A stretch of DNA of 64,000 bases from Nannocystis bainbridge (GTDB lineage Bacteria; Myxococcota_A; Polyangia; Nannocystales; Nannocystaceae), in assembly GCF_028368995.1 (NCBI RefSeq), contig NZ_JAQNDL010000001.1, positions 1,600,001 through 1,664,000 on the forward strand. Reading direction: 5' to 3'. Both the position numbers and the translations under genes were made by a program. Below are positions 5,789 through 64,000 of this stretch, piece by piece. The first letter of the stretch is position 1. The number at the start of each line of letters is the position of its first letter. The notes beneath the pieces were generated by a model. That model worked only from the letters and a program-made list of their open reading frames with translations. It was not told the origin of the DNA and did not search any database.

Positions 5789-7339
5789 TCAGCCGCAGGT
5801 CGGCCCGTACGACAGGTCGTTGATGCTGGCCTCGAGGTCCGGCAGCTGCATGTAGTCGTTCGAGCCGTCGAGCGAGATCTGGTACAGCTCGTCGCCGTTG
5901 TTCGAGAACGCCTGCTTCGTCACCGGGTCGAACTCGAGCCCGACCGAATTCCACTGACCCTCGGGGATGTCGGCGACCACCGTGCCCTCGCCGGTCGCGG
6001 GGTCGATGCTGAGGATCCGGCTGTTCTGGCCGTCGGTGACGAGCATGCGCTCGCCGACGCAGTCGACCGCCATGCCGCAGGCCTGGATGTTGACCCCGTT
6101 GCCGCCGGCGGTGATCGGCTTGGCGTCGGTGACCTCGCCGGTGGCCGGGTCGAAGGTGACGAGCTCGTCGGCGTCGGAGTCGACGCCGTAGAGGGTGCCG
6201 TCGTCGAGGAAGCCGAGGCCGCAGATCGATCGCCCGTGGTCGGCCAGCTCGGTCGGGGTGTCGCCGCTGCAGTAGTCGACGACGATGAGGACCTGCTTGG
6301 CCGACTGCGAGCAATAGATGCTGCCGTCGGCCGGGGAGATCGCGCAGGTGATCACCGCGTAGGGCGGCGCCAGCGGGCCGATGTCGACGCTGGCGAACGG
6401 CGTGATGTCGCCGTTCTCGACGTTGACCTCGGCGAACTCGCCGTTGTCGAGCGCGGTGTAGAGCACGCGGTCGCCCGGGTTGATGTCCGCGTTCGAATCA
6501 TAGCAGTCGGAGCCGACATCGACCCCCGGAGGGACGCTGGTGTCGCCCCAGCCGTCGCCGTCCTCGTCCTTCATGCACTTCGTCGGGTCTTCGACCTCGG
6601 CCGAGCCCGGGAAGGTGGCGGCGTCGTCGTCGTCACAGTCGGTCCCGGGCGTCACGTCCGGGTTCATCGGCATGCTCTCGCCCCAGTCGTCGCCGTCGAC
6701 GTCGGTCATGCACGCCATCGCGTCGTCGTTCGGCGCCGCCCCCGGGAAGGTGTGCTCCGAGCCGTCGTCGCAGTCGGTCCCCGGCGTCGCGTCCGGGTCG
6801 TCCGGGGTGCTGTCGCCCCAGCCGTCGCCGTCGAGGTCCTGCATGCAAGCGTCGGGCGGGTCCTCGTTCTCGGCCGCGCCCGGGAAGGTGTTCGGGTCGT
6901 CGTCGGCGCAGTCGTCGTCGTTGGGCACGAACCCGTCCGGCGGGTCCTCGCCGGGCTCCTGCGGCACGCAGTTGGCGGGGTCGCCGAAGCCGTCGCCGTC
7001 CTTGTCCTCGCACCACACCCCGCCCCCGCCGCCGGTGATCGTCTCGCTCTCGCTGTTCGAGTTCGAGTTCGAGTTCGATTCGCTGTTGCTGTTGCTGCCC
7101 TCGGTCGCGCTGCCCTCGGACGCGCTGCCCTCCGTCGGCGCCGACGCCGACCCCTCGGTGTCCGATTCGCTGCCCTCCGTCGCGCCGCTCTCGCTCGCGC
7201 TCGCGGTCAGCCCCGCCGTCATGCACGCCTCGAGCGACTGATTGAACACCGCGCCGTCGTCGACGCACGTGCTCGAACAACCGGGCGCGTGGCACAGCCC
7301 CGCCGCCAGCAACCAACCGAATCGACGCATGGAGGCCAT
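5789..7339 (-). CDS. Lipoprotein with Asp/Cys-rich putative metal-binding repeats and a C-terminal beta-propeller
   Basis: Lipobox-like HAPGC; Ser/Glu/Asn linker; repeated DxDGDGWGD...GTDCDD...TFPGAA; propeller-like tail. Start 7339 or 7330. Confidence 0.8.
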   Translation of the reverse strand: MASMRRFGWLLAAGLCHAPGCSSTCVDDGAVFNQSLEACMTAGLTASASESGATEGSESDTEGSASAPTEGSASEGSATEGSNSNSESNSNSNSNSESETITGGGGGVWCEDKDGDGFGDPANCVPQEPGEDPPDGFVPNDDDCADDDPNTFPGAAENEDPPDACMQDLDGDGWGDSTPDDPDATPGTDCDDGSEHTFPGAAPNDDAMACMTDVDGDDWGESMPMNPDVTPGTDCDDDDAATFPGSAEVEDPTKCMKDEDGDGWGDTSVPPGVDVGSDCYDSNADINPGDRVLYTALDNGEFAEVNVENGDITPFASVDIGPLAPPYAVITCAISPADGSIYCSQSAKQVLIVVDYCSGDTPTELADHGRSICGLGFLDDGTLYGVDSDADELVTFDPATGEVTDAKPITAGGNGVNIQACGMAVDCVGERMLVTDGQNSRILSIDPATGEGTVVADIPEGQWNSVGLEFDPVTKQAFSNNGDELYQISLDGSNDYMQLPDLEASINDLSYGPTCG

Positions 7340-55309: not shown

Positions 55310-58300
55310 GTGGGCACCGAACGGCCGAATCTGCTTGAGCGCATCGACCAGGGCCGCGTCAAGTTCGAGCTCCTGGGCACTCCCCAGTCGCTGGCGCGGC
55401 TCGACCGCTTCGTCGTGTTCGCCCGGCTCGGCGCCGGGGGGATGGGCGTCATCTATCACGCCTACGATCCACGGCTCGATCGCGGCGTCGCCATCAAGCT
55501 GCTCCGGCCGGCCGTCACGGCCCACGGCCGCCACCGCCGGCTGTTGCGCGAGGCCCGGGCGATGGCGCGGCTGGCTCATCCCAACGTCGTCCAGGTGTTC
55601 GAGGTCGGCGAGCTCGAGGAGCACATCTACCTGGTCATGGAGTACGTCGCCGGCCAGACGCTGCGGGCCTGGCTCGCCGAGTCGCCGCGCACCTGGCGAG
55701 AGGTGGTCTCGGTGTTCCTCCAGGCCGCCGACGGCCTCGCCGCGACCCACGCCCACGGGCTGGTGCACTGCGACTTCAAGCCCGAGAACGTGCTGATCGG
55801 CGCCGATGGGCGCGCGCGCGTCGGCGACTTCGGGCTCGTGCAGGCCGAGGCCGACGCGCCCGACGAGGCGGTCGTCGCCCGCGTGCGGGTCCGCGAGCGC
55901 CCGCCGGAGACCACGTCGACGAGCACCAGCCTGGGCGGAGGCACGCCGCGGTACATGGCGCCGGAGCAGCACGAGGGGCGCGCGGCGGATGCTCGCAGCG
56001 ACCAGTACGGCTTCTGCGCCGCGTTGCTCGAGGCGCTCGCGCCGGCGCGGTTCGAATCGTTCGTGCGCGAGGCGCCGCTCGGCCTGCGCGCGCTGCGAGG
56101 CGAATCGCCGGCGCCCTTGACGGTCGCGGGCGCACCGCCGGAGCTCGGCCGCGTCCTCGCCCGCGGCCTCGAGCCCGACCCCGAGCGCCGGTGGCCGTCG
56201 ATGTCCGCGCTGCGCGAGGCGCTCGCCAGGCTCGCCGAGCCGCGGTCGCGCGGCCTCGGCTGGCGGTGGGCCCTGGCCATCGGCGTGGCGGTCGGGCTGC
56301 TCGCGGGCGCCGGCTATGGCTTCGCGGTCACCGACGCGGCCCCCTGCGACGGCGGAGCCGCCGAGCTCGCCGCGGTGTGGGGCGAGCCGCAGCGCCAGCA
56401 GCTCCGGGCCGCGGTCACGGCGACGGGCCTCGGGTTCGCGGCCGAGACCGGCGCGCGGATCGAGGCCCACCTCGACGCCCACGCGCAAGCCTGGTCTCAG
56501 GCCCATCGAGCCGCCTGCGAGGCGCACCGCGACGGGCACAGTTCGGCCGCCCTGCTCGACCGGACCATGCTGTGCCTCGCCGCCGACCGGGTCGCGCTCG
56601 CCGGCCTGGTGCAGCGCCTCGTCGCGGCCGACGCCGCCGATCTCGAGCGGGCGATGGGGGCGACGCTGGCGCTGCCGGAGCTCGCCCGCTGCCGCGACGC
56701 CCAGGCCCTGCTGGCCGAGGTCGCCCCGCCGACCGACGCCGCGACGACCCTGGCCGTGCAGGCCGTGCGGTCCCAGCTGGGCACCGTCCGCGCCGAGTGG
56801 TCGCTCGGGCACCTCGACGACGCCGCGCGCCACGCCGCCGAGGCGTTCGCGCGGGCCCTGGCCACCGGTCACGCGCCGCTGATCGTCCAGGCTCTCTATC
56901 ACCTCGGCAAGCTCCACCACTCCCGCGACGCGCGGGCCGAGGCCGAGGCCACGTTGACCCGAGCCGCGTGGATGGCCGCGGAGATCGGCGACGACGAGCA
57001 GCTCGGCCTCGTCGCCGCGGCGCTGGCCCACGTGGTCGCGCTGCCCGGCGACCGTGGGCCCGAAGCCCGCACGTGGGTGCAACTGGCGCGCGCGATGACC
57101 CACCGGACGGCCCCGCGCGGCCGCTCGTACTTCGAGGCGCTGTTCGCCTCCGGCCAGGTCGAGCACCGCGCCGGGCGCTTCGCCGCGGCCGAGGAGTGGT
57201 TCGTGCAGGCCCTCGCCCACGCCGAGCAGCACCTCGGGTCGCGCAGCCACTCGACGCTGCTCGCGCGCGGGATGGTCGCGCTGGTGCAGGGCGAGCGCGG
57301 CGAGTACGACGCCGCGCTGGCGCAGTTCGAACGGCTCGCCGAGGTCCAGGCGGAGGTGTTCGGCCCGTCGCATCCGGCGGTCGCCACCCATCACAACAAC
57401 CGGGCCGCGCTCCTCCGCCAGTCCGGCCGCGAGGACGAGGCCCTGGCCGAGTTCTCGCAAGCGCTGGCGATCTGGCGCGCCGCTTATGGGCCGGACCACC
57501 CCGACGTCGGCATGGCCCACGGCAACATCGCCTCGGCGTTGCTCACCCGCGGCCTGCCGGGCGACTTCGAGCTGGCCGAGCCGCATCTGCGTCGGGCCAT
57601 CGCCACCCGCGAGCGGAGCCTCGGCCCCGACGACCCCGATCTGGCGGTCGAGCTCAGCAACCTCGGGAGCCTGCACCTGTTCCGCCTCGAGCTCGACGAG
57701 GCGGAGCGGCAGCTCGTCCGCGCCCTCGAGATCTGCGAGCGGACCGCGGGCGCCGAGCATCCGCGGGTCGTGCTGCCGCTCCTGGTGCTCGCCGAGGCGG
57801 CCGGGCTGCGCGGCGACCTGGCGGCGCAGCGGCGGCATTACGAGCGCGCCCTGAAGATCCAGGAGGCGTCGCTCGGACCGGAGCACCCCGACCTCGCCTG
57901 GACCCTGCGTGGGCTCGCCGAGGTGGCTCTCCGCGAGGGCGCGCTCGACCTTGCCGAGGGCCTCCTCGCCCGCGCCGAGGCCCTCGACGCCAGGGCCGGC
58001 GCGGACGAAGAGCGAGCGCTCGCGGCCCTGGGCCTGCGGGGACGACTCGCGCTCCGCCGCGGCGACGTCGCGACCGCGTGCGACCTGCTGGCTCGCTCGC
58101 TCCCCGGCAGCGCACGCACCTTCGATCCGGCCCGCGCCGAGCTCTCGAGCGAGCTCGCGCGCTGCCTGGTGGCCGCGGGGCGAGCCGACGAGGCGCGCCC
58201 GCTGGCCGAGCAGGCCGCCGCGTTCTACCGCCGGGGCGGCCCGGCGCTGGCGTGGCGGGTCGACGCCCTCGCGGCGCTGGCGAGCGGTCCAGGGCCCCGT

Positions 58301-58333
58301 GGGCAGCCTCGGGCCGATGTCCGAGCCCAGTGA
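55310..58333 (+). CDS. Ser/Thr protein kinase with TM segment and TPR repeats
   Basis: LGAGGMG, VAIKLL, HCDFKPEN, DFGL, GTPRYMAPE; repeats of GPxHPxxA. Confidence 0.93.
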   Translation: MGTERPNLLERIDQGRVKFELLGTPQSLARLDRFVVFARLGAGGMGVIYHAYDPRLDRGVAIKLLRPAVTAHGRHRRLLREARAMARLAHPNVVQVFEVGELEEHIYLVMEYVAGQTLRAWLAESPRTWREVVSVFLQAADGLAATHAHGLVHCDFKPENVLIGADGRARVGDFGLVQAEADAPDEAVVARVRVRERPPETTSTSTSLGGGTPRYMAPEQHEGRAADARSDQYGFCAALLEALAPARFESFVREAPLGLRALRGESPAPLTVAGAPPELGRVLARGLEPDPERRWPSMSALREALARLAEPRSRGLGWRWALAIGVAVGLLAGAGYGFAVTDAAPCDGGAAELAAVWGEPQRQQLRAAVTATGLGFAAETGARIEAHLDAHAQAWSQAHRAACEAHRDGHSSAALLDRTMLCLAADRVALAGLVQRLVAADAADLERAMGATLALPELARCRDAQALLAEVAPPTDAATTLAVQAVRSQLGTVRAEWSLGHLDDAARHAAEAFARALATGHAPLIVQALYHLGKLHHSRDARAEAEATLTRAAWMAAEIGDDEQLGLVAAALAHVVALPGDRGPEARTWVQLARAMTHRTAPRGRSYFEALFASGQVEHRAGRFAAAEEWFVQALAHAEQHLGSRSHSTLLARGMVALVQGERGEYDAALAQFERLAEVQAEVFGPSHPAVATHHNNRAALLRQSGREDEALAEFSQALAIWRAAYGPDHPDVGMAHGNIASALLTRGLPGDFELAEPHLRRAIATRERSLGPDDPDLAVELSNLGSLHLFRLELDEAERQLVRALEICERTAGAEHPRVVLPLLVLAEAAGLRGDLAAQRRHYERALKIQEASLGPEHPDLAWTLRGLAEVALREGALDLAEGLLARAEALDARAGADEERALAALGLRGRLALRRGDVATACDLLARSLPGSARTFDPARAELSSELARCLVAAGRADEARPLAEQAAAFYRRGGPALAWRVDALAALASGPGPRGQPRADVRAQ

Positions 58334-58727: not shown

Positions 58728-60011
58728 ATGCGAGACGAGAGTGAACGTGAGGACCACGGAAAGCTGTTCGTGACGAGCAGGTGTTGCGGCGCGGCGACGT
58801 GTCGCAACTTTGCGCCCGAACTCCTGGGCGAGGTGGCGACGGCGGGCGCCGTCCGTGACGGGCATCGGCTCGCTGTGTTGCCCGGGTCCTACGAGGATGG
58901 TGCCTTCACGGGGGTGCTGCGACAGCCGCACAGCGAGGAGGACCTGATCGCCGCGCGCACCGCAGTCGCGGCCTGCCCGGTCGGCGCCATCAAGCTCCTG
59001 CGTGGTGCCTCGCGGGTGCGCCGCGGCGCGTTGGGATCGCCCTGGCGCGGGTATCCCCGCCCCATCGAGGACAACGTGTGGATCGTCGGGCCTCCGTCCA
59101 TGAAGAACATCGGCGCCACGACTTACTTCATCGAGCGCGACGGCGGCGGCGTGTTGATCGACCCGCCACGACCGAGCGAGGCGCTGTTCCGCTGGCTCGC
59201 GGACCACGGCGGCGTCCGGTGGCTGTTCCTGACGCACCGCGACCACGCCCACCACCACGCCGAGATCGCCGCCCGCTTCCCCGATTGCCGCCGGCTCATC
59301 GGCGCAGCCGACGTGAACCTCCGCGAGAACAGCTTCCTCGCGACGACCGGCGACGTCGAGATCAAGCTCGGCAGCGAGCTTCGTCCGTGCACCCTCGAAG
59401 GACAGCCGCTCTCGGAAGCAGAGGCCCGACAGGCCGAACTCGTGGTGCTGCCTCAACCGGGACACACCGCAGGATCGATCTGCCTGCTGTACCGCGGTCG
59501 CTTCCTGTTCACCGGCGACCACCTCGCCTGGTCGCGCGTCCTCGGCCACATCGTGGCGTTCCGGGTGCAGTGCTGGGAGGACTGGGAGCGCCAGACCCAC
59601 TCCGTCCGTTATCTCGCCGCGGCCGCGGAGGCGGGCTGGCTGCGATTCACGTGGATCCTCCCCGGCCACGGAGAGTGGCAGCGTCTCCCGAGCGACGGCA
59701 GCGCGGCCGAGACAGCCGCGGCGCTGCGCCGCACGGTCGAGTGGATGGAGCGGCAGCCGAAGGGCCACATGCGGGCGATCCACTGGACCCCGTTCATCAT
59801 GGCCCGGTTGAAGCCGAAGAGCGCGCTGGGCCGCCTGGTGCGCGCCATCGGCCGCGGGAGCGACCTCTGGGTGTTGCCGCGTGACGTGTGGAGCTCGTTG
59901 CCCGCGCACGATCGTCGCCGCCTCGAAGCGGCGGTTCGCCGGCTTCGCGTGCTCGGGACCGTCGTGCTAGCAATCGCGGCGTTGATCGTGTGGTTCGTGG
60001 GTCGCAGATGA
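58728..60011 (+). CDS. Ferredoxin-fused MBL-fold metallo-hydrolase with C-terminal TM helix
   Basis: CCGAATCRNFAP...ACPVGAI; FLTHRDH, PGHTAGS, FTGDH, LPGHG. Confidence 0.85.
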   Translation: MRDESEREDHGKLFVTSRCCGAATCRNFAPELLGEVATAGAVRDGHRLAVLPGSYEDGAFTGVLRQPHSEEDLIAARTAVAACPVGAIKLLRGASRVRRGALGSPWRGYPRPIEDNVWIVGPPSMKNIGATTYFIERDGGGVLIDPPRPSEALFRWLADHGGVRWLFLTHRDHAHHHAEIAARFPDCRRLIGAADVNLRENSFLATTGDVEIKLGSELRPCTLEGQPLSEAEARQAELVVLPQPGHTAGSICLLYRGRFLFTGDHLAWSRVLGHIVAFRVQCWEDWERQTHSVRYLAAAAEAGWLRFTWILPGHGEWQRLPSDGSAAETAAALRRTVEWMERQPKGHMRAIHWTPFIMARLKPKSALGRLVRAIGRGSDLWVLPRDVWSSLPAHDRRRLEAAVRRLRVLGTVVLAIAALIVWFVGRR

Positions 60012-60080
60012 TTCGTGACCCACGACCCACGCGACTCAGAGCCACCTGCAATTCGGCCCGGCGAGCGACAGGCCGGCCGC

Positions 60081-60109
60081 CGACATGACCTGTCTTGAAG
60101 GTCAGGTCG
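60081..60109. repeat. Degenerate phased palindrome between convergent genes
   Basis: gacatgacctgtct-tgaa-ggtcaggtc; cores at 60089, 60103. Confidence 0.55.
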
Positions 60110-60139
60110 GCGACCTCGCCGACGCGGCAGTCGCCGCGC

Positions 60140-62347
60140 TCACCCGGTCGTCTCGGCCGAGGCCGCGACGACCTGTGCGCGTGCGTACTCGAGCACCATT
60201 GCGTTGTCGGTGCGCAGCGCCCACTCCGCGGCGAGCACCGGAGTCGCCGCCCAGCGCTCCGCGGCGTGATCGACCAGGCGCGGCCATGTCGCCCCGCCCG
60301 CCCGCACGAAGCGCTCGACCAACTGCTCGAGCGCCGGCCGCCCGAAGCAGCCGAGGAACATCGCCAGGTCGACCGAGGGATCGGTCACCCGCGCCTCCGT
60401 CCAGTCGAGGATCCCGACCACGCTCCCGTCTGTCTCGAGGAGCATGTGCCCCGGGTGCAGGTCCCCGTGCACCAGCGCGACGTGCTGCGGCCACATCGTA
60501 TCGTCGGCGAGCCAGCGCTGCCAGCGCTGCCACACCGCCTCCGAGGGCTGCAGCGCCTCGCGGGTCGCGTCCATCGACCGCGACAGCGCCGCGCGCACCT
60601 CTGCGATCGTCGTCGTCGGCGCGCCCGCGCGGCTCGCCGTCTCCGGCGCGATCGACTGCAACGCCGCCAGCGCCCGCGCGAACGACTCGAGGAACGCCTC
60701 GCAGGGCGCCGCTGGATCGAGGATGTTCCACCGCGGGCCCTCCGGCGTCACCGTCACTGCCGGCGTACCGGAGAGCCGCGGGTACGCGATCACGTCGGGT
60801 GCGTGCACCCGCCAGTCGGGCGCGGCCACCGGCAGGCGCGGGCGCACCAGCCGGAGCACCCGCGCCTCCACGTAGGTCGACGCCGTCACCTCGAGGCGAC
60901 GCGGCGTCCGCACGATCCACGGCGTGCCCGCCTCGTCGCGCGCGTGCACGACCAGGAAATCGAGCCCCATGCGATCGAAGTCGGCGTCCTCGGCCTGCAG
61001 CTCGAGCCCGTGCCGGCGGACGACCGCCAGCAGCTCCGACGGGCTGGTGATCGGCCGCACCGTCGACAGCAGGCCGCGCCAGCGCTCGAGCGCAGCCGGC
61101 TGCGCGCGCACCCGAAGCAGCGTCCCGGCCTCGGTGTAATTCTCCGCGAGCACGCGGGCGTGCGCGCGCACCTCCCCGAGCAGATGCCCGTCCGTGAAGG
61201 GCACCTCGAGCACATCGTCGACCTGTGTCGCGTCGAACGCCTCGATCAGCGCCGCGCGCAGGCGTGCGACGTCCGCGGGGTCGTGCGCGCAGACCTGCAG
61301 CGCCGCCGGCAGCTCCTCGGCCAGCGCCGCGCGCGTCGCCGCGTCGACCCGGTCGATCTTGTTGAAGATCACCAGCGAGGGCACCGCCGCCGCGCCGATC
61401 GTCGCCAGCGCCTCGCGGGTCACCGCGAGCTGCGTGCGCCACTGCAGATCCGACGCATCGACGACGACGAGCAGGAGCCCCGCGTCGCGCGCCTCGGCGA
61501 GGGTCGCGTGGAACGACGCGACCAGCTCGTGCGGCAATTCGCGGATGAAGCCGACCGTGTCCGACACCAGGATCCGCGGCGCCGTCTCCGGCGAGAGCGC
61601 CCGCACCGTGGTGTCGAGGGTCGCGAAGAGCCGGTCCTCGACCAGCACTTCACTCCCGGTCAGCGCGCGCATCAGCGACGACTTGCCAGCGTTGGTGTAG
61701 CCGACCAGCGCCGCGCGAGGCTGATCCTTGCGGCGCGCCCGCTGCGTCTCCTCGGCGGCGCGCAGGCCCGCGAGCTCGCGGCGCAGCCCGGCGATCCGTT
61801 CACGGAGCTCTCGCTTCTTCAGGGTCACGTTGCTGTGACCGCGCTCGCCCCGGCCGCCGCCGCCGCCCTCGCGCCCGCCGAGCGACCTGTCCTCGCGGAC
61901 ACGCGGGAGCGCGTGCGTGAGCGCGGCGATCTCGACCTCGAGCTGCGCGACCCGGGTCCGCGCGTGTCGCTCGAAGATCCGGAGGATCACGCTCGCGCGG
62001 TCGATCACCTCGACGCCCGCGAGCGCCTCCTCGAGGGCGCGGAGCTGGACGGGGCTGCGCGAGTCGCTGACGACGAGGAGGAGCTGCTCCTCCTCGGCGT
62101 CACCGCGGACCTCGGCGACGCGCGCCGCGAGCTCCGCGAGCTTGCCCTCGCCGATCGACGGATCGGCGGTCCGGTGGCGCTGGATCACCGAGGCGACGAC
62201 GCGGATCCCGAGCTGGGCGAGCAGGTTCTCGAGCTCGCTCATGGCCGCCTGCAAGGACGCTTCGGTGTCGCCGGGGAACTGCCGGCCGAGCACGACGGCC
62301 CGCGGCGTGGGGCGCACGGTGGATGGATGCCTGGAATGTTTGGTCAT
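60140..62347 (-). CDS. hflX: HflX GTPase fused to a macrolide 2'-phosphotransferase-like (Mph/APH) kinase
   Basis: aa 1 to ~425: IDRASVILRIFERHART, GYTNAGKS, FATLDT, DTVGFI, NKID. aa ~430-735: RHGL...GLDF...WIVRTPRR...EARVL...PDWR...HGDLHPGH...LDWTEA. Single frame; AGGAG SD 8 nt upstream. Confidence 0.92.
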   Translation of the reverse strand: MTKHSRHPSTVRPTPRAVVLGRQFPGDTEASLQAAMSELENLLAQLGIRVVASVIQRHRTADPSIGEGKLAELAARVAEVRGDAEEEQLLLVVSDSRSPVQLRALEEALAGVEVIDRASVILRIFERHARTRVAQLEVEIAALTHALPRVREDRSLGGREGGGGGRGERGHSNVTLKKRELRERIAGLRRELAGLRAAEETQRARRKDQPRAALVGYTNAGKSSLMRALTGSEVLVEDRLFATLDTTVRALSPETAPRILVSDTVGFIRELPHELVASFHATLAEARDAGLLLVVVDASDLQWRTQLAVTREALATIGAAAVPSLVIFNKIDRVDAATRAALAEELPAALQVCAHDPADVARLRAALIEAFDATQVDDVLEVPFTDGHLLGEVRAHARVLAENYTEAGTLLRVRAQPAALERWRGLLSTVRPITSPSELLAVVRRHGLELQAEDADFDRMGLDFLVVHARDEAGTPWIVRTPRRLEVTASTYVEARVLRLVRPRLPVAAPDWRVHAPDVIAYPRLSGTPAVTVTPEGPRWNILDPAAPCEAFLESFARALAALQSIAPETASRAGAPTTTIAEVRAALSRSMDATREALQPSEAVWQRWQRWLADDTMWPQHVALVHGDLHPGHMLLETDGSVVGILDWTEARVTDPSVDLAMFLGCFGRPALEQLVERFVRAGGATWPRLVDHAAERWAATPVLAAEWALRTDNAMVLEYARAQVVAASAETTG

Positions 62348-62608
62348 ACGAAGGACTCCTGCGCTCGCGGCCCGTAGGCCCGAGCGAGCTGGGAAGCCCG
62401 TGCGCGCGGCTCATGTGCCCGGCGCGGCGAGACGACGTCTCGACGCGACTGCTTCTTCCGGCGGCATGAGACGCCGCGCCCGGGCATTCCGTGGGACTGA
62501 AAGGACGGAGATGCGGGCACGACGCCGCAGCACTCGCACTCGCACCGTGCGCGCCGGATCTGCCGGAACACGCGGTCTGCGAGCGGGTACTGCGGAGCTC
62601 AGCGCAGG
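62348..62608 (-). promoter_or_regulatory. Structured 5' leader, putative translational attenuator
   Basis: 8-bp inverted repeat 62601-62608 (RLR codons) / 62358-62365 (overlaps SD); hairpins at 62525-62595 and 62417-62485; competing UACG hairpin at 62362-62386. Confidence 0.7.
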
Positions 62609-62625
62609 CGGATGAAGAAAACCAT
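62599..62625 (-). CDS. Leader peptide MVFFIRLR (macrolide-arrest R-L-R motif)
   Basis: ATG GTT TTC TTC ATC CGC CTG CGC TGA, about 250 nt upstream of hflX-mph. Confidence 0.75.
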   Translation of the reverse strand: MVFFIRLR

Positions 62626-62634
62626 GTCGCGGCC

Positions 62635-62664
62635 AGAATGCCACCACTCGCCCCCGCCGCGCAA
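62635..62664 (-). promoter_or_regulatory. Putative sigma70-like promoter for the leader/hflX-mph transcript
   Basis: TTGCGC-18-CATTCT; the -10 ends 9 nt before the leader ATG, implying near-leaderless initiation. Confidence 0.45.
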
Positions 62665-62743
62665 GCGCCTTGTGTCGTCCCCCTGTCCTTCGCGGCGAAA
62701 CACCGCGAACGCGCGGGCGGCCAGCGGGCCGAAGCAGAGAGCG

Positions 62744-63211
62744 TCACTCGATGTCGACTCGCAGGATCGTCGCCTGGCCGTCGCGCTCGATGGCGAAGCG
62801 GCTGGTGCCCGCGCTCCGCAGGTGCTCGAAGGCCGCCTCGACGTCGGCGACGTCGACCACGGGGGCGTCATCGACCGCCGTGAACAGGTCGCCGTTCTTG
62901 AGGCCGACGAGCCCTGGCAGGCTGCCCGCGCGCAGGCCGTAGACGAAGACGCCGCGAGGGACGCCGTCGTCGAGGAAGGGGATCAGCCGGGCCTGCTTTC
63001 GCACGGGCAGCGCGTTGACGGCGAGCGTGTCGACGAATCGTTGATCGAGGGTGCACCGGACGTCGCGGCAGCGCGCGAGCAGTGAGACATCGCCCATCTG
63101 GGCGGCGGCGTCAGCGGACGGATCGGCGCCGGAGATGAGGAAGAACAGCACGCCGGCGCAGGAGAGGCCGGCGCAGAACGAACCGAGAGCGGAGCGGAAG
63201 GAATTGCCCAT
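62744..63211 (-). CDS. Membrane-anchored GspC-like PDZ protein
   Basis: N-terminal TM; ARLIPFLDDGVPRGVFVYGLRAGSL...GLKNGDL...IERDG. Confidence 0.75.
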   Translation of the reverse strand: MGNSFRSALGSFCAGLSCAGVLFFLISGADPSADAAAQMGDVSLLARCRDVRCTLDQRFVDTLAVNALPVRKQARLIPFLDDGVPRGVFVYGLRAGSLPGLVGLKNGDLFTAVDDAPVVDVADVEAAFEHLRSAGTSRFAIERDGQATILRVDIE

Positions 63212-63375
63212 GCGGCGAGGCTTAGCAATTCCGGTGCCACCATCACGCAGGCCCATCTGCCGAGCGAATCGCCTGCAGACGCCGTGAGAAGTCGACATTT
63301 TGTCATGCGCACGCCGTCGCCCGCGACGAAGCGAGCTCGACGCCCCGCCGGCGAGCCGGCGGAGAGAGTCTTTCA

Positions 63376-63399
63376 GGACATGTCCCGAAGAACATGCCC
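63376..63399. repeat. 14-bp-phased CATG pair
   Basis: ggacatgtcc-cgaa-gaacatgccc; cores at 63379, 63393. Confidence 0.85.
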
Positions 63400-63423
63400 C
63401 GAGAGCCACCCGGCGAGCACGAT

Positions 63424-64000
63424 TCACTGCGCCGCGGCGGCGAAGCGCACCGCCACCAGGCTGTGCGGCGGCAGCGTCAATTGCACGCGCTCGCCGTCCT
63501 GCACGAACGGGGCCGGCTCGACGGCGACCGGCTGGTACATCGTATTGTGCTCGGCCGACGGCGGGGCCCACTGGCTGGCGGCGGTCGCGGTCCAGCCGGG
63601 CGGGAGGTCGACGGTGAACGTGTGGCTCTGCTGGAGGTCGCGGTGGAGGGCGACCAGGCTGCCGGTCTCGCTGGCGGGGTCGACGAAGGCGGCGGCGTGG
63701 ACCAGCGGGACCTTGATCGTCTCGTCTGGTCCGAAGGACATGTCCCTCTCGACCTGCTTGGTGAACTCGAGCGGGGCGGCGCGCTCGAGCAGGTGCTCGC
63801 CGACGAGGCGGGTGGCGACATAGCTGGCCATCGGCGCGGCGGTGGCCTCGGGGCCGGCGCGGAACGGGTTGTACCAGGGCTCGAGCAGCGGGTCGCGGTC
63901 CGGGCGCTCGAGGCTCTCGAACTCGAGGGCGGCTTGCTGGCAGGCCGCCTCGACGCCGAGCTGGGCGTAGAGCAGCAACATGCCGGCGACGCCGAGGCCG
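63424..64000 (-). CDS. C-terminal part of a probable glycoside hydrolase (alpha-L-arabinofuranosidase C-domain-like), truncated by the window edge
   Basis: Ends HNT...PVAVEP...VQLTLPPHSLVAVRF, typical of GH51-like beta-sandwich tails. Confidence 0.6.
   Translation of the reverse strand, partial: GLGVAGMLLLYAQLGVEAACQQAALEFESLERPDRDPLLEPWYNPFRAGPEATAAPMASYVATRLVGEHLLERAAPLEFTKQVERDMSFGPDETIKVPLVHAAAFVDPASETGSLVALHRDLQQSHTFTVDLPPGWTATAASQWAPPSAEHNTMYQPVAVEPAPFVQDGERVQLTLPPHSLVAVRFAAAAQ

Follow-up and report, generated by a model that had tools for sequence, protein, structure and literature searches.

Two kinds of protein protect bacteria from macrolide antibiotics: HflX GTPases, which act on drug-stalled ribosomes, and Mph kinases, which inactivate the drug. 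Here we analyse a window of 64,000 nucleotides (nt) of Nannocystis bainbridge DNA (assembly GCF_028368995.1, contig NZ_JAQNDL010000001.1, positions 1,600,001 to 1,664,000; the window is this whole stretch, and coordinates without a contig or locus name refer to it), in which the minus strand of 60140..62347 joins an HflX protein and an Mph-type kinase in one polypeptide, behind a leader that carries a short upstream open reading frame (uORF) ending in Arg-Leu-Arg and a stop codon (RLR-stop). Both modules and this type of sensor are already known; their combination in a single polypeptide is most likely undescribed.

The loop of the HflX helical domain (HD loop) reaches the peptidyl-transferase centre, and the C-terminal domain (CTD) docks on uL11 and H43-44 at the stalk base of the ribosome (PMC9638945, PMC11831132; these two papers, like PMC12493154, PMC2686079, PMC8298421, PMC6109786, PMC5760710 and PMC5722643 below, are cited from part of their text). 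Listeria monocytogenes HflXr (lmo0762, rli80 leader; PMC6310831; structure 8a57) resembles the fusion in being an extra HflX beside a housekeeping copy, in its four-part architecture and in a short R-L-R leader open reading frame (ORF) that senses stalled ribosomes. It differs in having no kinase, a 14-codon leader with an intrinsic terminator and an HD loop described as extended. Duplications of hflX in different clades have been reported to be independent (PMC6310831). Mycobacterial HflX (structures 8vkw, 8kab and 8vio) confers macrolide-lincosamide resistance by splitting stalled ribosomes, and erythromycin stays bound alongside it rather than being displaced; whether HflX-mediated macrolide resistance arises from drug displacement, from an allosteric change of the binding site or from mere splitting is disputed (PMC11831132). 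This protein likewise has no kinase, and it carries an N-terminal extension and a nine-residue HD-loop insertion that are both absent from the fusion. Mycobacterial HflX is regulated by WhiB7 and is not known to be controlled by a leader peptide.

Counterparts of the second half are MphA, MphB, MphH, MphC and MphE, which share with the fusion a full-length fold and the HGD/E...H and DW[ST]E motifs, and differ from it as stand-alone proteins of about 300 amino acids (aa), the clinical ones being plasmid-borne beside mrx or msr. All Mphs studied use GTP (PMC6109786). On clinical plasmids the ribosome-protection genes msr(A) and msr(E) adjoin mph(C) and mph(E), respectively; these msr(A)-mph(C) and msr(E)-mph(E) operons pair a factor for drug-bound ribosomes with a macrolide kinase, as the fusion does, but the factor is an ABC-F ATPase rather than HflX and the partners are two proteins. 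In the bifunctional aminoglycoside enzyme AAC(6')-Ie/APH(2'')-Ia (PMC5722643), too, two resistance modules are naturally joined in one polypeptide, each of them drug-modifying, whereas in HflX-Mph one would act on the ribosome and the other on the drug. The first-pass annotation, drawn from the DNA letters alone, knew of no characterised fusion of this kind, and we found no paper on one, nor any RLR leaders of mph genes, in the published literature outside subscription journals and supplementary data; the terms 'fusion' and 'fused' were not found in the text available of PMC5760710, PMC9638945, PMC11831132, PMC12493154 and PMC6109786.

One reading frame for an HflX GTPase and an Mph-family kinase

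The gene and its domains are laid out as follows.

60140..62347, minus strand: coding sequence of the HflX-Mph fusion, 735 aa, an ATG-started single ORF with its stop codon at 60140-60142
61973..62248, minus strand: HflX N-terminal subdomain ND1 (Pfam GTP-bdg_N, residues 34-125)
61730..61966, minus strand: HflX helical domain (Pfam GTP-bdg_M, residues 128-206; model helices 132-149 and 169-206)
61829..61894, minus strand: HD loop, residues 152-173, in which the clade signature GGGGRGxRGH[ST]N replaces the canonical GGIGxRGPGET; disordered in the model
61358..61714, minus strand: core of the GTPase (G) domain (Pfam MMR_HSR1, residues 212-330; G1 GYTNAGKS, G2 T243, G3 DTVG, G4 NKID)
61067..61231, minus strand: HflX CTD, residues ~373-427 (PRK11058 profile; model strands 376-415, helix 417-427)
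61040..61066, minus strand: linker between CTD and kinase, ~9 residues (428-436), placed by structure alignments, the model and continuity in relatives and contigs
60161..61051, minus strand: Mph-type kinase domain (residues 433-729; matches 6-300 of the 301 residues of solved MphA, chain 5igh_A)
60446..60469, minus strand: catalytic loop HGDLHPGH, residues 627-634 (motif search)
60392..60406, minus strand: metal-binding motif DWTEA, residues 648-652 (motif search)

The first-pass annotation had proposed an uninterrupted 735-aa HflX-Mph ORF without naming a strand. We place it on the minus strand, where the frame is indeed unbroken and every quoted motif lies at its expected residue: GYTNAGKS at 216-223, FATLDT at 241-246, DTVG at 263-266 and NKID at 329-332 in the HflX half, and RHGL at 445-448, GLDF at 461-464, TPRR at 481-484, HGDLHPGH at 627-634 and DWTEA at 648-652 in the kinase half. 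The codon-position GC contents (G1 0.77, G2 0.51, G3 0.94) are typical for genes of this 72%-GC genome, and an AGGAG Shine-Dalgarno (SD) sequence stands 8 nt ahead of the ATG.

Profile searches identified both halves. The NCBIfam model TIGR03156 for HflX scored 304.6 bits over residues 18-369 (307.2 bits in a six-frame search of the genome), with the cut-off at 216.75. PRK11058, the profile for HflX of the E. coli type, was matched over positions 25-407 of 426, which means that the HflX CTD is retained; ND1, helical domain, G domain and CTD are thus all present in this order (Pfam, PRK11058 and model). Among solved structures, mycobacterial HflX matched the N-terminal half best (E 8.8e-66, residues 16-419), ahead of Listeria 8a57 chain D (E 6.9e-57) and E. 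coli 5ady (E 1.5e-50). Across 70 fusions, residues G216, Y217, T218, N219, G221, K222, S223, T243, D263, T264, G266, K330 and D332 are invariant, as are G162-G165, R166 and G170 of the HD loop.

The kinase half matched eight NCBIfam Mph models end to end at 159-213 bits, whereas the next kinase families, capreomycin phosphotransferase (Cph) and APH(3'), scored about 30 bits; the Pfam APH match spans residues 460-691. Solved Mphs were matched with their C-terminal helices included (MphA 5igh_A, E 5e-62; MphB 5igu_A, 5.1e-59; MphH, ~5e-49), against E 2.5e-6 only for the Cph structure. Its identity to MphA, MphC and MphE (references taken from annotated plasmids) is 40%, 35% and 32%, close to the 34-40% that these enzymes share with one another. 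As for the catalytic residues, all 70 fusions have H627, one lacks H634 and two lack D648, and position 629 is Asp in 53, Glu in 15 and another residue in 2; Glu196 is the catalytic residue of the validated, active MphH (PMC5760710), and Glu is catalytic in two further Mph types (PMC6109786). These matches place the kinase half in the Mph family, its catalytic residues are intact, and its substrate would be a macrolide. Among 1.84 billion representative sequences, the Mph-like family numbers 1761 at E<=0.001, 301 at <=1e-10 and 89 at <=1e-30, and the best matches to the kinase domain comprise both fused and stand-alone forms.

An AlphaFold2 model built on an alignment of the 70 fused sequences has a mean predicted local distance difference test score of 85.6 and a predicted template-modelling score of 0.71; confidence is low only at residues 1-12 and in the HD loop (152-170), and a short link joins the halves at about 427-436. 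When residues 1-427 and 431-735 were given as separate chains, complex prediction returned scores of 0.07 and 0.06 against a mark of 0.32, in runs that had no controls.

The same architecture occurs well beyond the source genome. A word-index search (NCBI, JGI, ENA and Logan) retrieved 69 other protein clusters, 716-766 aa long and each containing the four Pfam domains, among them Chondromyces apiculatus, Sandaracinus amylolyticus, Lujinxingia and Bradymonadaceae; fusions as little as 45% identical thus persist from Nannocystis to Bradymonadales and keep a short linker whose length is conserved. Public annotations name them just 'GTPase HflX'. Nannocystis radixulma, N. punicea, N. pusilla and Nannocystis sp. 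RBIL2 carry fused forms that are 87-90% identical in both halves, with an uninterrupted junction in open frames of 756-757 aa, and the frame is equally continuous in Chondromyces apiculatus. Scoring the two best candidates per genome, we found a full-length fused match in at least 10 of 401 sampled genomes of the phylum, namely the source genome and, from one other family (f20), nine of the 34 genomes sampled; among the matches listed, none of the four other sampled genomes of the source's own family had one. A scan of species-representative genomes with a kinase-only alignment of seven sequences kept 80 loci, 11 of them fused.

The first-pass annotation had singled out 61000-61100 for scrutiny. 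Metagenome contigs from runs X18 (60927-61702) and X7 (60988-61687), 93-94% identical relatives from two studies, cross the junction gap-free, as does an identical 163-nt contig of run X1 over 61024-61186, and no indel is listed in the metagenome contigs between 61000 and 61100. The fusion is not an assembly artefact; the agreement goes far beyond chance. One guess, that runs with a constant share of ~0.12 held only the leader, was rejected, as X7 and X18 carry diverged copies of the whole gene. Among the runs listed as carrying the gene none is of RNA, the one labelled metatranscriptomic being flagged as probably DNA. Summed contig depth jumps 100- to 500-fold at 61670-61754, the stretch that encodes the P-loop GYTNAGKS; this is a mapping effect, because that stretch is common to many GTPases. 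At locus L075, from a long-read metagenome-assembled genome (MAG), the HflX and kinase halves lie in different frames with a one-base offset at the junction (5957-6001); it is probably a frameshifted fusion, by sequencing error or as a pseudogene, and given the offset we did not count it as a natural hflX/mph split.

Phylogeny of the two halves and recurrence of their linkage

Three HflX genes of the source genome exceed the TIGR03156 cut-off (434.5, 335.6 and 307.2 bits in the six-frame search). A separate housekeeping copy, for which the first-pass annotation had advised looking, is present: a 582-aa paralog has the canonical loop GGIGGRGPGETKLE, as in E. coli HflX. At the same site the fusion reads GGGGGRGERGHSNVTL; the loop sequence GGREGGGGGRGERGHSN runs from residue 157, and the canonical motif GGIGxRGPGE is absent from the fusion, with GGGGRGERGHSN in its place. 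The third HflX paralog (483 aa; contig C3:1235928-1236758; locus L002, 1072-2523) has the loop GRGAGETELE and an acidic insertion in its N-terminal part. Its G domain is very similar to that of the fusion, it stands without an RLR uORF, and it is of the type that most genomes of the phylum carry.

In a quick IQ-TREE analysis of 54 HflX sequences, all 30 fused N-terminal halves and 22 stand-alone proteins of 420-496 aa formed one clade; a branch of length 1.58, with a Shimodaira-Hasegawa-like approximate likelihood-ratio support of 100, sets this clade apart from the canonical paralog and E. coli HflX. Fused and stand-alone forms are interleaved within the clade, with 8 changes of state, at least 4 of them forced by starred branches. 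The signature GGGGRGxRGH[ST]N is common to the fusions and to many stand-alone members of the clade, so it is not specific to the fusion. The earlier suggestion that the odd loop betrays a specialised paralog is thus borne out as far as a separate, long-branched clade goes, but not as a mark of the fused state. The non-canonical HD loop marks a subclade, without excluding its members from the HflX family, and this RGH-loop subclade can now be recognised from sequence.

On a 99-row kinase tree, fused proteins stand in at least three places split by starred branches. The main fused clade holds the source protein, with a stand-alone paralog of the same genome nested beside it (98, starred). Another fused group has HGE instead of HGD and adjoins stand-alone proteins near MphE; compared with the source fusion, its HflX half is 56% identical and its kinase half 35-36%. 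The third place is that of P0069, known from a single metagenome contig, whose sister is a stand-alone protein, followed by MphA together with an MphA-like myxobacterial gene (97, starred); its HflX half is 51% identical to that of the source fusion, and its kinase is 57% identical to MphA and 41% to the source kinase. By these trees, with which the tree-independent identities agree, the fused proteins carry kinase domains of at least three Mph lineages; repeated fusion, replacement of domains or a single old fusion followed by many fissions could each explain the pattern, the counts being unrooted.

The nested paralog is a stand-alone Mph-family kinase on contig C5 (57002-57904, minus strand; locus L024), 62% identical to the kinase half of the fusion and preceded by its own MFAFIRLR-stop uORF. 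It is sister to the fused domain in the trees, and a second kinase tree makes it the ortholog of a stand-alone gene of Nannocystis exedens (100, starred). Elsewhere in the same class, a chromosomal stand-alone kinase (locus L027, 2251-3177) shares 73% identity with clinical MphA and reaches 494 bits against the Mph(A) model, whose cut-off is 550. A Fic-family gene adjoins it, and its neighbourhood showed nothing like mrx or mphR; this kinase may bear on the environmental origin of mph(A).

The same pairing occurs outside the phylum as two genes. In two Rossellomorea species (sp. BNER, locus L122, 4283-6903; R. pakistanensis, locus L127), a gene for a 435-aa HflX (460.5 bits) lies directly upstream of an Mph-family gene of 299 aa (317.8 bits, Mph(B) model), 36 nt apart, and each genome holds another, higher-scoring HflX. 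A leader uORF, MATIRLRFRALNH-stop, contains I-R-L-R-F and is followed by a GC-rich hairpin and a T-run (read by eye). This arrangement parallels the fusion in placing a second HflX upstream of an Mph gene behind an I-R-L-R leader, and differs from it in comprising two genes, a G(A)GE-type loop and a classic terminator attenuator, in Bacillota. We know of no description of this operon.

The leader and its short reading frames

Upstream of the fusion gene we recognised the following elements.

62348..62664, minus strand: conserved 5' leader with putative promoter (alignment of five Nannocystis species)
62635..62664, minus strand: putative promoter, TTGCGC (62659-62664), a spacer of 17-18 nt and CATTCT (62635-62640), inferred by reading
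62599..62625, minus strand: uORF1, MVFFIRLR-stop, 8 codons, with the arrest motif R6-L7-R8 (five-species conservation)
62411..62467, minus strand: uORF2, 18 codons (MPPEE...), conserved in Nannocystis
62353..62399, minus strand: hairpin with the main SD AGGAG (62356-62360) in its 3' arm, invariant in five species

About 320 nt ahead of the start codon are nearly invariant across the five Nannocystis species, clearly more conserved than the coding region (87-90% at the protein level), and further upstream the sequences cannot be aligned. The ATG of uORF1 lies 9 nt past the -10-like hexamer with no SD visible, so that uORF1 appears to be near-leaderless; in the sister species it reads MAMFIRLR, MVAFIRLR or MFAFIRLR.

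RLR is a macrolide-arrest signature, and an R-L-R leader ORF also controls Listeria hflXr (PMC6310831, PMC8298421). On ErmDL the ribosome stops at Arg6-Leu7-Arg8, with Leu7 occupying the P site (PMC8298421), codon positions identical to those of uORF1; uORF1 differs from ErmDL-type leaders in that its stop follows directly after Arg8, in being apparently leaderless and in preceding a gene that encodes no methyltransferase. Counting ATG-started uORFs of up to 30 codons that end in R-[LF]-R-stop within 450 nt upstream, we found one at 16 of 18 fused loci; since L094 and L010, the loci without one, share the same upstream sequence, this makes 16 of 17 distinct loci. Such uORFs arose in 8 of 3600 dinucleotide-block shuffles and in 38 of 4158 background 450-nt windows, from which true sites had not been removed. 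As related genomes are not independent, nine lineages are the fairer count: Nannocystis (MxxFIRLR), Chondromyces (MVKSIRLR), L070 (MFLFMRFR), L095 (MIDFCRLR), L110 (MWTLLYARLR), L116 (MRLFYYIRLR), L124 (MRKFCFYIRLR), one genus of f20 (MIDxF[HY]IRLR) and L019 (MFILCLVRLR). Between lineages the R, L and R codons vary synonymously (CGC/CGG/CGA, CTG/TTG/CTT/TTA and CGC/CGT), which indicates that the peptide itself is conserved.

The RLR uORF tracks the HflX loop type. Among stand-alone HflX loci drawn from the survey of the phylum, those with the RGH-type loop had an RxR-stop uORF in 3 of 3 cases (L139, which equals L164; L140; and L159, which is truncated by a contig end and may be fused), whereas those with G[AKS]GE, GPGE or related loops had one in 0 of 17 and, in a second batch that left out one locus without upstream sequence and one untypable locus, 0 of 8. 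None was present upstream of the canonical HflX or the 483-aa paralog of the source genome. R-[LF]-R-stop-type uORFs also precede 26 of 69 non-fused Mph-family loci, including ones from Labilithrix, Kofleriaceae, Polyangium, N. exedens, Paenibacillus and Brevibacillus, and are missing from most Sorangium loci. Four-codon MRLR-stop uORFs stand before Mph-family genes in Paenibacillus, Brevibacillus and Cohnella, and uORFs of the MTASIRLR/MTAAIRLR type before those in Kofleriaceae and Sandaracinus MAGs. If uORF1 works as its motif suggests, arrest-peptide sensing of macrolides would extend to GC-rich Myxococcota, by way of an apparently leaderless uORF of eight codons.

The leader RNA folds better than 100 of 100 shuffles (z -3.1); Rfam, searched at permissive thresholds over 62250-62800, returned no family, only a single chance-level match (E 0.32). 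A five-species consensus fold has 103 predicted pairs, of which three are changed on both sides (compensatory), all three in the helix that joins uORF1 to the region around the uORF2 start; within this helix the uORF2 AUG is base-paired to the final Arg codon and the stop codon of uORF1. When a ribosome stalled on uORF1 was simulated in a static model, the unpaired probability of the uORF2 start rose from 0.17 to 0.35. The footprint of a ribosome at the uORF2 stop ends 3 nt short of the SD hairpin. A relay can be envisaged in which arrest on uORF1 allows uORF2 to be translated, which would in turn open the SD hairpin or protect against Rho.

Proposed function, competing explanations and genomic surroundings

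We propose that the fusion is probably a macrolide-inducible bifunctional resistance protein. Near-leaderless uORF1 would be translated until a macrolide or ketolide in the tunnel arrests the ribosome at R6-L7-R8; the arrested ribosome would melt the uORF1-uORF2 helix, and the structured 280-nt leader would turn the main gene on. The HflX module would then bind drug-stalled ribosomes and split or recycle them with GTP, like Listeria HflXr and mycobacterial HflX, while the Mph module would phosphorylate the macrolide 2'-OH with GTP, leaving the drug unable to rebind. Joining the two would secure co-induction and a 1:1 dosage and hold the kinase near ribosomes, with no direct hand-off of the drug implied. 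Induction, ribosome splitting, the macrolide substrate and a benefit of physical coupling are each put forward conditionally.

The macrolide link suggested in the first-pass annotation has become much stronger because of the RLR-stop uORF, the MphA-lineage kinase domains of some fusions and the Rossellomorea hflX-mph operon. Its picture of a protein that dislodges the drug and destroys it in a hand-off at the ribosome has found no backing: the kinase is tied by ~9 residues to a CTD that docks at the stalk base, not the tunnel, and mycobacterial HflX does not displace erythromycin (PMC11831132).

Several observations weigh against our proposal. Resistance-type HflX proteins are described as having an extended HD loop (PMC9638945, PMC11831132), and that of the fusion is not extended (50-51 versus 51 residues in E. 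coli HflX over the aligned stretch). The scores stay below the curated Mph model cut-offs of 500-650 bits (best 213 versus 550), which excludes a named Mph type rather than the family, as these NCBIfam 'exception' models are tuned to named alleles. In a kinase tree rooted on three APH proteins of the same genome, which sets the Mph-like group apart (97, starred), the fusion clade falls outside the MphA/C/E subtree, under a root that is untrustworthy because the outgroup branches have lengths of 5-10 and one outgroup lies inside the ingroup. Mphs are 'not at all conserved' in the surface that binds the macrolide (PMC6109786), so the substrate of the fusion kinase is unprovable from sequence, and APH-fold kinases can switch substrate class, ComG and Cph acting on peptides (PMC10996006). 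The Listeria RLR leader answers to lincomycin too (PMC6310831), so macrolides need not be the only inducers here. At one distinct fused locus, L094 (equal to L010), an R-[LF]-R-stop uORF is lacking. The unpaired probability of the main SD stays at 0.20-0.21 in all static states, including that with a ribosome at the uORF2 stop. A consensus promoter and terminator scan of 59900-62900 gave no strict sigma-70 site and no intrinsic terminator, and the neighbours of the gene are unrelated to resistance.

It is possible, if somewhat unlikely, that both activities hold and the fusion is a frozen hflX-mph operon that brings co-expression only, its kinase acting on free cytoplasmic drug. The pair exists as two genes in Rossellomorea, the source genome keeps a stand-alone kinase with the same leader type, and both domain trees show at least 3-4 switches between fused and separate, such that fusion and separation seem readily interchangeable; the CTD, moreover, docks far from the tunnel. 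Persistence of the fusion from Nannocystis to Bradymonadales, down to 45% identity, with a conserved short linker argues against this reading, as does the recurrence of the association with several kinase lineages. The stalk base lies tens of angstroms from the tunnel entrance.

Drug-stall induction and HflX rescue may also operate as we propose with a kinase that acts on a non-macrolide target, either another ribosome-targeting natural product that myxobacteria meet or make, or a protein or ribosomal target; we consider this unlikely. The unconserved substrate pocket, the peptide-directed kinases ComG and Cph, the scores below the model cut-offs, the unreliably rooted position outside MphA/C/E and the lincomycin response in Listeria all leave room for it. 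It is countered by an identity to MphA, MphC and MphE equal to that among these enzymes, by a full-length match that includes the C-terminal helices, by the gap between 159-213 bits for Mph models and ~30 bits for other APH families, by the fusions with MphA-lineage kinase domains and by the RLR-stop uORFs before stand-alone Mph-family genes in Paenibacillus and Brevibacillus. Mphs of these two genera were reportedly validated in PMC5760710.

Beyond our proposal, and in our view doubtful, the HflX module could be a targeting device that brings the kinase to drug-stalled ribosomes, where drug coming off the split 50S subunit would be captured and phosphorylated; the two domains, both users of GTP, might be coupled. 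If true, this would be the first enzyme for drug inactivation to be physically directed to the target of the drug itself. A corollary would be that the stand-alone mph(A) and mph(E) lineages may descend from fusions by fission in Myxococcota or Bradymonadia; the nearest relatives of these clinical lineages include fused proteins.

Highly improbable is a stress or ribosome-biogenesis HflX whose kinase-like domain is a regulatory or GTP-sensing appendage without a drug-modifying role. HflX proteins are indeed active in heat stress and 50S biogenesis (PMC12493154, PMC2686079), and the neighbourhood holds no resistance genes; set against this, the kinase catalytic residues are kept in 68-70 of 70 fusions (Asp or Glu counted at 629), a canonical HflX lies elsewhere in the genome and induction by drug-stalled ribosomes is what the RLR-stop leader suggests. 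That two adjacent genes were joined by an assembly error or a frameshift, for which the offset halves of L075 might speak, has a negligible chance in view of the continuous frame in four Nannocystis genomes, Chondromyces apiculatus, 69 other clusters and at least 10 of 401 phylum genomes, and of the gap-free metagenome contigs.

Fusions with several kinase lineages and an operon in another phylum, both under RLR leaders, suggest that ribosome splitting and drug inactivation cooperate. They offer strong comparative evidence that the two work together, as the msr-mph operons suggest for ABC-F proteins, and the fused, split and single-domain forms make a clean experimental system in which to measure synergy. 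Mph-family genes, close relatives of mph(A) among them, also appear to have a reservoir in predatory soil bacteria.

The surroundings of the fusion gene are annotated as a Ser/Thr kinase with TPR repeats, a ferredoxin-metallo-β-lactamase-fold (MBL-fold) hydrolase, an amidohydrolase, an SDR protein, an ArsR-type helix-turn-helix protein and a NUDIX protein, with no sign of a resistance island or biosynthetic cluster among the annotated neighbours. The nearest are these.

55310-58333, plus strand: 1007-aa Ser/Thr kinase with TPR repeats, no visible resistance link
58728-60011, plus strand: 427-aa ferredoxin-MBL-fold hydrolase, convergent with the fusion gene, no visible resistance link
62744-63571 and 63424-65142, minus strand: two ORFs upstream of the leader, no Pfam match

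The ORF at 62744-63571 is a candidate gene whose third-position GC content is below that of its neighbours, and a PDZ-like stretch can be made out in it by eye.

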